A stretch of 64,000 nt of DNA, from the NCBI GenBank assembly GCA_030602715.1, contig JAUVZD010000001.1, positions 124,403 to 188,402 of the forward strand. The letters are read 5' to 3'. Origin of the DNA: Candidatus Coatesbacteria bacterium (GTDB lineage Bacteria > RBG-13-66-14 > B26-G2 > JAUVZD01). Positions 10,912 to 39,301 of the stretch are shown one piece after another. Every line of letters starts with the position of its first letter. Position 1 is the stretch's first letter. The translations under genes were made by a program, and so were the position numbers. The notes under the pieces were generated by a model, which was not told the origin of the DNA, made no database searches, and was given only the letters and a program-made list of their open reading frames with translations.

Positions 10912-10938
10912 CCCCCCCCCGCCGATGGCGGGGGGGGG
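10912..10938. repeat. GC-rich palindrome C9-GCC-GAT-GGC-G9 between convergent genes (REP-like or terminator)
   Basis: Perfect 12-bp stem with 3-nt loop; core matches the palindromes at 27138-27191 and 39163-39179. Confidence 0.7.
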
Positions 10939-20970: not shown

Positions 20971-21255
20971 CTACCTCTGTTTTGAGTTGACCATCTCTTT
21001 GAGTCTCTTGCTGGGGGTGAATTTTACACGAAAGCAATCAGGAAGCGCGATCTGCTTATTTTTTTTAATGTCCCTGGCAATCTTTGCCTCAGCTCGTATT
21101 CTTTTAAATGTGCCGAAGCCACGAACCTCAATCTTCTCCTTATTGAGCAGACCTTTCTTAATCTCATCAAGCAGGAGATTTAACATATTCAATGCTTCCT
21201 TCTGGGAAATGCCGACCTTTAAGGCTACTTTACTGGCGATCTCCCTCTTGGTCAT
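20971..21255 (-). CDS. HU/IHF family DNA-binding protein
   Basis: MTKREIA, EKIEVRGFGTF, F.PSK.LKE. Confidence 0.9.
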   Translation of the reverse strand: MTKREIASKVALKVGISQKEALNMLNLLLDEIKKGLLNKEKIEVRGFGTFKRIRAEAKIARDIKKNKQIALPDCFRVKFTPSKRLKEMVNSKQR

Positions 21256-26126: not shown

Positions 26127-27122
26127 ATGAGAATGATTGAGGGAAATATCGGACGAGGTGGCATTCTATTAATACTTATAATTGCGTTATCGTTCTTCGG
26201 CTGTGCCAAGAAGGAGGCGGAGCGGGAGACCGCCGCTGTGGAAGAAGGGTATGCCGAGTATGAGTATGAGGAGGTCATGCCCGCTGAGAAGATGAAAGAA
26301 ATTGAAGCCCCCGCTGCTGATTATGCGGATGAAGGTGTAGTCAGTGGGGTAGAGGATGTAACTATTGAAACCTTCGCCGGTGAGGTCACCGACGAGGATA
26401 TCGGAATAGAGCAGATCAAGGTCAGCAGAAAGGTCATCAAGACCGGGAATGTGACCATTGAGGTGGGTAGTGTAGATGAGTCGTTGCAGGAACTGAACAA
26501 GATATTGGAGAAATACCAGGCTGATATTGACAATCGTATGGTGGTGGGAGCGGGGAAGTATCAGGGAATGTATGCGGTTACATCGGTGCGGGTTGCCCCG
26601 GAACATTTTGAGGAACTGGTTGAGGATGTTAAGGAGTTGGGGGAGCTTAAGGACGAGAACATTTCTGCCCAGGATGTGACCAAACAACATGTGGACTTGA
26701 TGGCCCGGCTCAAAAACGCCAGAATGGTGAGGGAACGCTATCAGAGTATGTTGGATAAAGCGGTAACTGTAGGTGAGATGATAACCATAGAACATGAGCT
26801 GGAGCGGGTCAGTGAGAAGATAGAGATGTTGCAGGCGGAGCTGGACAGTCTGATGGATTTGGAGAGGCGCTCCACTCTGACCATAACCCTGCAGGAGCCG
26901 ACAAGCTTCTTTGAACCCTTCGCCGGCTTTGGACAGGGAATGATGGAGACATTCAGGTGGGTGGTACAGATATTGATCTACAGCTTACGTGTCTTAATTA
27001 TCTTGATTCCTTTCGTCATAATCTTCATAATTGTCTTCCTGATTATAAAGTTGATAATCAGGCTGGTGCGCTTGCTGGGCAAGCCCAGGGGTAAGCCGGC
27101 GGAGAAGAAGGGAGAGGTCTGA
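26127..27122 (+). CDS. DUF4349 domain lipoprotein
   Basis: Lipobox FFGC, RKVIK.G, DVT.Q.VD..ARL.N, coiled coil, C-terminal TMs. Confidence 0.82.
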   Translation: MRMIEGNIGRGGILLILIIALSFFGCAKKEAERETAAVEEGYAEYEYEEVMPAEKMKEIEAPAADYADEGVVSGVEDVTIETFAGEVTDEDIGIEQIKVSRKVIKTGNVTIEVGSVDESLQELNKILEKYQADIDNRMVVGAGKYQGMYAVTSVRVAPEHFEELVEDVKELGELKDENISAQDVTKQHVDLMARLKNARMVRERYQSMLDKAVTVGEMITIEHELERVSEKIEMLQAELDSLMDLERRSTLTITLQEPTSFFEPFAGFGQGMMETFRWVVQILIYSLRVLIILIPFVIIFIIVFLIIKLIIRLVRLLGKPRGKPAEKKGEV

Positions 27123-27126
27123 TACA

Positions 27127-27519
27127 ATGGCTAAGGCTGGCACCCCGCCAAGGCGGGGTAGGGATGGCACCCCGCCAAGGCGGGGTAGGGAGAAAAGCAT
27201 AACCAAGGCGATATTGGCAAAGCGCATAGCCGAAAGGTGTGATTTTAGTCAGAGGAGGTCGGCGCAGGCAATTCAAAGTATCCTTGATGAGATTGTTGAG
27301 GCGATGGCGGAAAGTGCTAAGGAAGCTGAACGCAAAGGAAACGATAGGGGCAGGACAAATGTTGAATTCAGGGGTTTCGGTAGCTTTAAGGTAAGGCGGC
27401 GCAGACCACGAATAGCCAAGAATCCACGAACAGCAAAGGATGTATCGGTTCCTGCTAAGTGGATACCTTATTTTAAGGTATCAAAGGAGTTTCGTGAATT
27501 GATTGCAAAATCAAAATAG
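27127..27519 (+). CDS. HU/IHF-beta-like DNA-binding protein with N-terminal repeat insertion
   Basis: ITK..LA, VEFRGFGSF, R.AKNP.T, PYFK.SKE. Confidence 0.9.
   Translation: MAKAGTPPRRGRDGTPPRRGREKSITKAILAKRIAERCDFSQRRSAQAIQSILDEIVEAMAESAKEAERKGNDRGRTNVEFRGFGSFKVRRRRPRIAKNPRTAKDVSVPAKWIPYFKVSKEFRELIAKSK
27138..27191. repeat. Exact 2 x 27-bp tandem repeat, each unit containing a palindrome
   Basis: TGGCACCCCGCCAAGGCGGGGTAGGGA at 27138-27164 and 27165-27191. Confidence 0.95.
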
Positions 27520-27541
27520 AGCGGAAAGGATAAAATGAAAC

Positions 27542-27634
27542 ATGGGAAGTTCTCGTAAGCAGAAGAGGCGCAAGATAGCAACGCACAAAAGGAAGAAGCG
27601 TTCCCGGGCTAATAGGCACAAGAAGAAGAAATAG
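27542..27634 (+). CDS. Small basic ribosomal protein bS22-like (AURKAIP1/COX24 domain), not in the ORF track
   Basis: MGSSRKQKRRKIATHKRKKRSRANRHKKKK*; matches the K.ATHKRKK..R.NRHKKK pattern; AAAGGA RBS upstream, hairpin downstream. Confidence 0.82.
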   Translation: MGSSRKQKRRKIATHKRKKRSRANRHKKKK

Positions 27635-37742: not shown

Positions 37743-38264
37743 TTACTCATATTTGATAAGGCTTATGATTTCGTAATCCTCTATCTTCTTGCGTCCCTCC
37801 AGGAATGCCAGCTCAATGACGAAGGCGATGGCTGAGACCACTCCGCCGGCTTTCTCAACCAGGCGGGCGGTAGCCTGTGCGGTTCCTCCGGTAGCCAGCA
37901 GGTCATCAATGATTAAAACCCGTTCCCCCTCATTTATTGCGTCAATGTGCATCTCCACGGAATCTGTGCCGTACTCCAGCTCGTAGCTCTCGGTTATAAT
38001 TTTGTGTGGTAGTTTACCCTGTTTGCGCACAATAGCATGGCCACAGCCCAGCTTATGAGCCAATGCCCCACCGAAGATGAACCCCCGGGATTCTATGGAG
38101 GCAATCTTATCAATCTTTTTCCCGCTCAGCGCCTTCGCAAAATCGTCAATAGATTTGCGGAAAGCCCGGCTGTCAAGCAGGAGGGGGGTGATATCTTTGA
38201 AGCCGATTCCCGGTTTAGGAAAATCCATCACCTCACGAATGTAACTCTCAAGATTGATGCTCAT
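37743..38264 (-). CDS. apt: Adenine phosphoribosyltransferase
   Basis: DFPKPGI.FKDITPLL, ESRGF, RK.GKLP, Y.LEYG, IDDLLATGGT; TAATG overlap with the sigma gene. Confidence 0.96.
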   Translation of the reverse strand: MSINLESYIREVMDFPKPGIGFKDITPLLLDSRAFRKSIDDFAKALSGKKIDKIASIESRGFIFGGALAHKLGCGHAIVRKQGKLPHKIITESYELEYGTDSVEMHIDAINEGERVLIIDDLLATGGTAQATARLVEKAGGVVSAIAFVIELAFLEGRKKIEDYEIISLIKYE

Positions 38265-39301
38265 TATGTGGTATCTCCTTCCTCCAACCAATCTACCAGT
38301 TTCTGTCTCTCCAGGGCAAGTTCACGCATCTTGCGAATGGCTTTCTCCTCCAATTGGCGCACCCGTTCTCGGGTAATTCCCAGCCTCATTCCAATCTCCT
38401 TCAATGTCAGGGTTTCACCTTCAAAGAGCCCGAAGCGCAACTCAATAACACGTTGTTCCTTGGGGGTCAGTTTTTTCAGCAGTTCCAGGAGATATTCGTT
38501 GCGGAGGATCTGGAAGACCGCATCCGAGGGGATCTTGCTGGATTTGTCTTCCACAATATCCATCAGCCTCAACTCGTTGTCGGGGTCCAAGTAGGTGTCC
38601 AAGCTCTGGGTCTGCTTTTCTACGGCAATAACCTGCTTGGCTTTATCAAGGGAAATACCCATCTCCTTGGCTATCTCCTCCAGGGTTGGATTGCGTCCGG
38701 GGATATTGGAGAGTTTCTTTTTGGTGTTGAAGTAGCGATTTATCAGCTCCACCATATGCACCGGTAGGCGGATGGTTCGGGCTTTGCTCGCCAGAGCTCG
38801 GGAAATGGATTGGCGAATCCACCATGAGGCATAGGTGGAGAACATAAACCCCTTACGATAGTCAAACCTTTCCACCGCCTTTATCAATCCCAGATTCCCC
38901 TCCTCAATCAGGTCCATGAAGGAGAGCCCCCGATTCAGATAATTTTTGGCGATGTTTATCACCAGCCGAAGGTTGGAAAGTATCATCGCCTTCTGGGCTT
39001 CAATGTCCCCCTCAAAAGCCTTCTTTGCCAGGATGCGAGCGTCATCCGGTGAAAGAACCGGTATCTGGGACAATTCCTTCAAATATATTCCTAAAGTGGA
39101 ATACCCCCTAATATCACCGTCATCGGCTTTCTTTCTTTCCTTCTTCCGCCTCTTCATCTCCACCCCGCCTATGGCGGGGGAGGATTCCCGTGTCTCTTTT
39201 GTCTCCTTCTTCTCGGTTCTTTTCAGGGTCTGTTTGCTGGTTCCCTTTTTGGCATTGTCTTTGCTTGAGGAGGGTTTCTTTTCTTTCCTCTTCTTGGACA
39301 T
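38264..39301 (-). CDS. rpoS: Group 1/2 sigma-70 factor, RpoS-like
   Basis: YL.E, NLRLV, DLIEEGNLGL (RpoS-type EEGN), FSTYA.WWIRQ, RTIRLPVH, TL.EIG...G.TRERVRQ; no region 1.1; apt neighbour. Confidence 0.75.
   Translation of the reverse strand: MSKKRKEKKPSSSKDNAKKGTSKQTLKRTEKKETKETRESSPAIGGVEMKRRKKERKKADDGDIRGYSTLGIYLKELSQIPVLSPDDARILAKKAFEGDIEAQKAMILSNLRLVINIAKNYLNRGLSFMDLIEEGNLGLIKAVERFDYRKGFMFSTYASWWIRQSISRALASKARTIRLPVHMVELINRYFNTKKKLSNIPGRNPTLEEIAKEMGISLDKAKQVIAVEKQTQSLDTYLDPDNELRLMDIVEDKSSKIPSDAVFQILRNEYLLELLKKLTPKEQRVIELRFGLFEGETLTLKEIGMRLGITRERVRQLEEKAIRKMRELALERQKLVDWLEEGDTT
39163..39179. repeat. Palindrome CCCCGCC-TAT-GGCGGGG inside the sigma factor 5' region
   Basis: 7-bp perfect stem; sense strand CCCCGCCATAGGCGGGGTGGAGA closely matches the HU unit CCCCGCCAAGGCGGGGTAGGGA. 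Confidence 0.65.

Follow-up and report, generated by a model that had tools for sequence, protein, structure and literature searches.

A palindromic hairpin duplicated in frame in an HU/IHF-family gene, and a tRNA-associated GIY-YIG nuclease as the candidate agent of its spread

The window studied here, meaning the whole stretch of 64 kb that was analysed, contains an HU/IHF-family gene in which two identical units of 27 bp follow shortly after the start codon. A Pfam search matches PF00216 (Bac_DNA_binding) to residues 26–126 of the 130-aa ORF at 27127–27519. Each unit reads TGGCACCCCGCCAAGGCGGGGTAGGGA, and the pair at 27138–27191 reads MAKAGTPPRRGRDGTPPRRGREKSITKAIL; both units are in frame in the ORF. 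The first-pass annotation had described this exact doubling after the HU start, together with sister cores in a sigma gene and in an intergenic region, and all three are confirmed. The relevant features are the following, in window coordinates.

26127..27122, plus strand: DUF4349 gene upstream of the HU gene (Pfam and synteny).
27111..27117, plus strand: Shine-Dalgarno-like GGAGAGG, 9 nt before ATG 27127, within the 3' end of the DUF4349 gene (sequence).
27127..27519, plus strand: gene of the HU/IHF family (130 aa); its N-terminal tail of 24 residues is specific to the lineage (Pfam).
27138..27164, plus strand: first 27-bp unit (hairpin and local flanks), present in some strains only.
27165..27191, plus strand: second 27-bp unit, identical to the first.
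27143..27158, no strand: hairpin core CCCCGCC-AA-GGCGGGG, copy 1 in the HU gene.
27170..27185, no strand: hairpin core, copy 2 in the HU gene.
27199..27201, plus strand: ATA codon of Ile25, the homologue of the start Met in syntenic orthologues (MTKADL), with AGGGAG 6 nt upstream (orthologue comparison, sequence).
39163..39179, no strand: hairpin core in a sigma-70 gene (38264–39301, minus strand), in frame and reading PAIGG, in a Lys/Glu-rich N-terminal region.
10912..10938, no strand: hairpin core (10917–10933) with extended C/G arms, in a terminator-like position between convergent QRPTase and Fe-S/CCG oxidoreductase genes.

A second HU/IHF paralogue of 94 aa, free of hairpins, lies 6 kb from the first on the minus strand (20971–21255). 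Directly 3' of the HU gene there is a short Lys/Arg-rich ORF (27531–27634, MGSSRKQKRRKIATHKRKKRSRANRHKKK), kept in the close relative L034, which we take to resemble small basic proteins of the AURKAIP1/COX24 type.

The number of units differs among strains. In the assembly run that is the likely source of the window, both units are found in a single contig at depth 87. Run X4, from another study, has two hairpins in one 15.9-kb contig with 3 bases fewer, and run X15 has two units in a contig extending only 22 bases beyond them. Runs X8 and X11 have one unit each. The loop of core copy 2 is flipped from AA to TT in X8, and the corresponding peptide is PPWRG in protein P0001. One contig of the fragmented run X2 has a 2-base gap at 27166 that would disrupt the HU frame. 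These are results for 8 of the 21 runs listed; X10 and X18 did not reach the site. Besides the runs, a scan of 17 metagenome loci gave two close contigs, at 95.6% identity, with one unit each, and the 90% protein cluster of nine members is formed by seven single-unit and two double-unit proteins, the latter (P0007 and P0009) bearing different substitutions. No allele devoid of the hairpin was found among the 17 metagenome loci (two of them close), a protein search for close relatives (2 matches at E 1e-20), the nine cluster members and the 8 of 21 runs. Since unit number is either one or two and never zero, the hairpin is fixed in the lineage and its duplication polymorphic; of the 0, 1 or 2 units that the first-pass annotation proposed to look for in HU relatives, the last two exist (seven and two of the nine proteins) and the first is missing among close strains. 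The length variants of the tail, of 27, 30 and 3 bp, all keep the frame from ATG 27127.

The ancestry of the tail can be traced through gene order. Ten class-level relatives have HU next to DUF4349 in the same order, which identifies the HU orthologues; the spacer between both genes in these ten is roughly 65–120 bp and hairpin-free, and the only genome of the same order has no HU at the DUF4349 locus. All ten syntenic orthologues have MTKADL at the position of Ile25, so the ancestral protein started with MTKA and all 15 or 24 residues of the tail are a later addition. This replaces the idea of a clean insertion into an ancestral MAKAKSITK. Removing both units does yield that peptide as a matter of arithmetic; an allele of that kind is absent from those seen, none of the nine cluster members being hairpin-free.

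The hairpin itself belongs to a family that extends well beyond the HU gene. CCCCGCC-N2-4-GGCGGGG occurs 4 times in the window, compared with 0 in 100 shuffles, and the 2.3-Mb genome holds 85 copies of this 7-bp-arm core, compared with about 0.5 expected from arm counts, while the arms in reverse order at the same spacings occur 0 times genome-wide. One-mismatch hairpins add 29 further cases (3–6 for control words). By a 6-bp-arm definition there are 90 copies; the dominant arm at gap 3 accounts for 63 copies and the next best arm for 7. In 87 of the 90 copies, A is the first loop base of the dispersed core (which has 7-bp arms) on one strand, and the flank composition of the 87 oriented copies reveals no conserved flank beyond the arms. 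The 27-mer taken in the earlier annotation as the mobile element is found only at the HU site, even if up to 5 mismatches are allowed; therefore, with the core at 85 sites, the dispersed unit is the core of 16–18 bases. The same hairpin is present in 0–7 copies in each of 24 other genomes of the phylum. The view that miniature palindromic repeats confined to one lineage have entered genes in frame is thus upheld, genome-wide enrichment included.

Called genes contain 44 of the 90 copies of the 6-bp-arm definition, or 46 with the two HU copies, some of these genes being short and doubtful; per base, the density of hairpins in genes is about one fifth of that in intergenic DNA. Intragenic hairpins are read in all three frames. 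The supposed preference for protein termini did not hold, as 12 of 36 hairpins lie within 50 aa of a protein end when 9.7 are expected (the two HU copies are outside this count). Intergenic copies have stems extended by about 6 bp, and 16 of 46 are located between convergent genes; T/A runs flank 31 of 44, with no enrichment over the 60% background. In four filled/empty paralogue pairs the hairpin replaces 5–16 host bases, with net changes of +6, +12, +12 and 0 bp, and in one pair of ambiguous polarity the empty site bears a half-hairpin. Target-site duplication, the mark of MITEs and IS-derived elements, is not apparent, flanking direct repeats of at least 3 bp being found at 2 of the 85 copies and at 1.5 in shuffled sequence. 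A local duplication of 16-mers overlaps 10 of the 90 hairpins and 0 of 400 single-arm controls. Presence/absence of a core at an orthologous site was not seen among close strains.

The sigma gene behaves much like the HU gene. In a cluster of 14 members, one of them probably this genome's own protein, the hairpin segment is present once in 11, twice in 2 and three times in 1; three alleles have PAYGG, the reading expected of a flipped loop, and one has PAKGG. The peptide is missing from four more distant sigma proteins, in which the region does not align.

Hairpins are concentrated in three settings: the head region of a prophage, DNA-methylase genes and a single paralogue family. The prophage region (G000:C4:151800-168800, L265) encodes a major head protein (phrog_371) and a head maturation protease (phrog_976), and C4:140000-180000 contains 15 hairpin copies, several of them in frame in phage genes; relatives of the protease, whose gene bears three hairpins, were not found in viral contigs. 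Paralogous DNA methylase or restriction-type genes (C10:135221-138259, C16:90027-92921 and C9:77742-79600) have independent hairpins at several positions, one of which is followed by a 21-bp tandem duplication (GPAPQHA twice). About 20 paralogous proteins on C10, C14, C15 and C16 (e.g. C14:41831-43864) share a C-terminal region with a GFNLYRR motif and have nine hairpins at two shared positions (TPPMAG and SPACGG), other members being empty. An array at C4:137000-148000 (L266) comprises about ten genes of 200–260 aa, several followed by hairpin-cored terminator-like stems; the five genes tested gave no Pfam match.

A RAYT/IS200-type or other nuclease gene flanked by the motif had been suggested as the place to look for the agent of spread. 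The first half of this suggestion found nothing: neither RAYT (PF01797) nor four-helix-bundle genes (PF05635) were found in the genome, rated 100% complete, nor was a reverse transcriptase (PF00078) of the kind that retron- or DGR-like writing would involve. The second half led to a stand-alone GIY-YIG gene on another contig (G000:C9:133.1-133.4 kb), with an intact tRNA-Ser on one side and, on the other, two partial tRNA-Ser copies in which hairpin arrays occupy the middle. Within this gene, a one-mismatch hairpin shifts the frame where homologues have the YIG (second catalytic) tyrosine. The broken copy is the sole family member found in this genome, and the protein of another strain is called from the same internal Met; the other GIY-YIG matches in the genome are long proteins (625 and 346 aa) scoring below 18 bits on the family profile. 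At the locus itself (C9:133040-133640; L033:1366-1970) the hairpin arrays are nested and the nuclease 3' end is also duplicated upstream.

The family is present in only one of 25 genomes of the phylum. That genome is the present one, which is also the only hairpin-rich one (85 copies versus 0–7), a contrast of one lineage with the rest. Thirty intact homologues all share residues Y5, Y16, R26, H30 and E62. Among the best 80 of 203 homologous loci, mostly from Patescibacteria and also from Bacteroidota, Ignavibacteria and Omnitrophota, a tRNA lies within about 700 bp of the nuclease in 76. The 6-bp-arm hairpin is present at 33 of the 80, compared with 0–1 in 10 shuffles and 3 of 44 HU control loci, and the 5-bp-arm hairpin CCGCC-N2-4-GGCGG at 58 of the 80 (0–5 in 10 shuffles; 8 of 44 control loci), in 57 of these 58 within about 700 bp of the nuclease. 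In the flanks of homologues there are 5' copies of tRNAs with arms overwritten by the hairpin. Genome-wide counts, which cover 50 of the 80 loci (L051–L100), give at most 2 copies of the 6-bp-arm hairpin in 20 of 50 nuclease-bearing genomes. For 121 genomes of one Patescibacteria class the median hairpin density is 26/Mb with the nuclease and 5/Mb without it; the reversed-pattern control is also raised with the nuclease in the same genomes (7.8 vs 4.2), and the correlation between the nuclease and the hairpin/control ratio is weak (rho 0.30), these related genomes not being independent. A profile search at E 1e-10 gathers 5,546 representatives at 50% identity, more distant GIY-YIG proteins included, and NCBIfam and PHROGs have no specific family for the nuclease. 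Long tandem arrays of hairpin units, with periods of 86, 66 and 68 bp, occur beside homologues in other phyla (L119:1870-2840, L092:940-1280 and L087:1060-1270), and several homologue loci have 2–4 nuclease copies in tandem.

Several known systems resemble this pairing of a small enzyme gene with a dispersed hairpin. The closest is the Ssn/NTS-SRM system, represented by SsnA of Neisseria, in which, according to the available text of Chenal et al. (2025, PMC11893778), a single-domain GIY-YIG gene is likewise flanked by a short GC-rich hairpin dispersed in the genome, with a similar stem (CCCGC...GCGGG); the enzyme recognises this hairpin in single-stranded DNA and cleaves next to it. Unlike NTS as described there, the hairpin studied here has no conserved orienting flank, the SRM pattern is found in 0 of the 90 copies and 0 of the 80 homologue loci, and about half of the copies are intragenic, compared with 2% of NTS (PMC11893778). 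The nuclease differs as well, being tied to tRNA genes and without the C-terminal extension of three NTS-flanked proteins. These three, from viral contigs, score 38–48 bits on the family profile, versus 109 for the local gene, and they form a separate branch in a tree built from one in three homologues, a set of 27 rows from which those with truncated N-termini were removed. Judged against these three Ssn-type proteins, the nuclease would fall outside the Ssn (cd10448) clade. The searchable literature, which covers few subscription journals, yielded no description of a tRNA-linked GIY-YIG/hairpin pairing; the supplements of the Ssn paper may list such homologues.

REP/REPIN elements with RAYT, as presented in the available text of Di Nocera et al. 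(2013, PMC3733652), are also short palindromes, dispersed or arrayed, some of them intragenic, that flank a dedicated enzyme gene. In contrast to them, the present hairpin is shorter, replaces host bases in the pairs examined and is accompanied by no Y1/HUH transposase that could be found; a conserved GTAG or CGTC tag is absent from the 87 oriented copies, the GTAG of the HU unit being local. Rickettsia palindromic elements (RPE), described in the same source, add peptides in frame to unrelated proteins, as does the hairpin here. It lies in frame in unrelated intact genes, called genes accounting for 44 of the 90 copies, to which the two in HU are added. RPE-1, of about 150 bp, is far longer than the hairpin, which has 16–18 bp, adds 5–6 residues in any frame and comes with a candidate enzyme. 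The minimal GIY-YIG domain is also found in the stand-alone Slx1-like proteins of prokaryotes, the relation being distant; the available text of PMC1564403 mentions no tRNA or hairpin association for them. The best solved-structure matches of an intact homologue are PDB 1zg2 (E 1.5e-6) and 1ywl (E 6e-4). By the tests run, the cassette seems to work like Ssn/NTS and REP/RAYT while being a member of neither.

On the basis of these sequence comparisons, we think it fairly probable that the small stand-alone GIY-YIG nuclease beside tRNA-Ser has been the spreading agent of the hairpin. The cassette would have entered the genome sideways, and its enzyme, by analogy with Ssn acting on NTS, would bind the hairpin in single-stranded DNA and cut beside it. 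Repair by strand annealing or template switching might then paste the hairpin over other sites and duplicate or flip it locally, selection retaining the frame-preserving events in tolerant loops and tails while frame-breaking ones are lost. The only copy of the nuclease gene found here is broken, so duplications and loop flips of recent date among strains may have arisen without the enzyme; according to the available text of PMC8794818, template switching is able to invert loops by itself. A bolder version, which we put forward only tentatively, is that 78-residue tRNA-lodging nucleases of a clade separate from Ssn are writers that overwrite host DNA with their own 16-base recognition hairpin, using neither transposase nor reverse transcriptase. 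Each copy would then attract in-frame duplications and loop inversions, building new protein tails and loops as in HU and sigma, until a hairpin in the active-site codons of the writer itself ends the burst.

The origin of short palindromic repeats and their entry into genes are settled only in part, RAYT being the agent for REPs and Ssn having been proposed for NTS. In our opinion, this genome is a natural experiment, since the one cassette bearer of the phylum is the one with a repeat burst, and its cassette is now broken by its own repeat. It contributes a contrast of one lineage with the rest of its phylum, a nuclease gene that is broken, and two core proteins with hairpin-centred expansions at strain level. 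Moreover, an enzyme of 78 aa and a substrate of 16 bases can be named and directly tested, and the hairpin-specific nucleases would gain a second clade of GIY-YIG enzymes.

Spread of the hairpin by template switching and gene conversion between paralogues, with no nuclease and with the cassette as merely another collecting site, has several observations in its favour. Loop flips (AA/TT in HU, PAIGG/PAYGG in sigma) and local duplications are what template switching is expected to give (available text of PMC8794818), nine copies occupy two shared positions of one paralogue family, for which inheritance or conversion is possible, and the local nuclease gene is broken. Such a process probably explains the HU duplication itself. 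As an account of the whole family we consider it unlikely, as it leaves unexplained both the dominance of one fixed sequence (63 copies of the top arm versus 7 of the next) and the recurrence of the same hairpin beside the same nuclease family in unrelated phyla.

The hairpin might also be a signal selected by the host, such as a DNA-uptake-like sequence, a terminator core or a protein-binding site, with the nuclease as a domesticated partner that trims incoming single-stranded DNA like SsnA. In favour of this, a ComEC-family gene is present in the genome, intergenic copies have stems extended by about 6 bp and lie between convergent genes in 16 of 46 cases, and transformation by NTS-bearing DNA is restricted by SsnA according to the available text of PMC11893778. 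We hold this to be quite unlikely, however, given that the copies number only 85, reach per base in genes about one fifth of their intergenic density, cluster in a prophage and paralogue arrays and are absent from the rest of the phylum, next to a nuclease that is broken here, and with flanking T/A runs at background (31 of 44 vs 60%).

For the HU gene, this leaves the question of whether its tail is of use. An adaptive tail could act as an AT-hook-like RGR arm that would enter the minor groove of AT-rich DNA, or as a translation-tuning RNA hairpin, possibly with ATA 27199 as the start, which would leave the repeats untranslated. All 10 HU alleles seen have at least one RGR, an AT-hook-like signature of Lsr2 and Bv3F in the available text of PMC8476142. 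As these alleles are about 95% identical, this conservation says little; the RGRP consensus of that source is replaced by RGRD and RGRE in the tail, which has no AT-hook Pfam match, and unit number and loop vary freely. At the RNA level, the two units are predicted to be able to form one long stem (-36.6 kcal/mol) that begins 15 nt past the ATG, although the predicted openness of the ribosome site is similar with one and two units (0.56 vs 0.61). AGGGAG precedes by 6 nt the ATA, which is the homologue of the ancestral start codon, but the 27-, 30- and 3-bp variants keep the frame from ATG 27127. ATA starts are rare. An adaptive role thus seems to us very unlikely. The ribosome site and the frame-keeping length variants favour translation of the tail from ATG 27127, and we think that the tail is most likely a tolerated by-product that replaces the ancestral MTKA start, now ATA; the insert on its own is probably near-neutral.

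Finally, an assembly artefact, which exact tandem units might suggest and against which the best-matching run is not independent evidence because it may be the source of the window, is refuted almost beyond doubt by the two hairpins in one contig of run X4 from another study and by the different substitutions of the double-unit proteins P0007 and P0009. The duplication is therefore real, as the contig at depth 87 spanning both units and the two other public double-unit proteins indicate, and we are highly confident that the HU pair is a strain-variable local tandem duplication around one hairpin copy.
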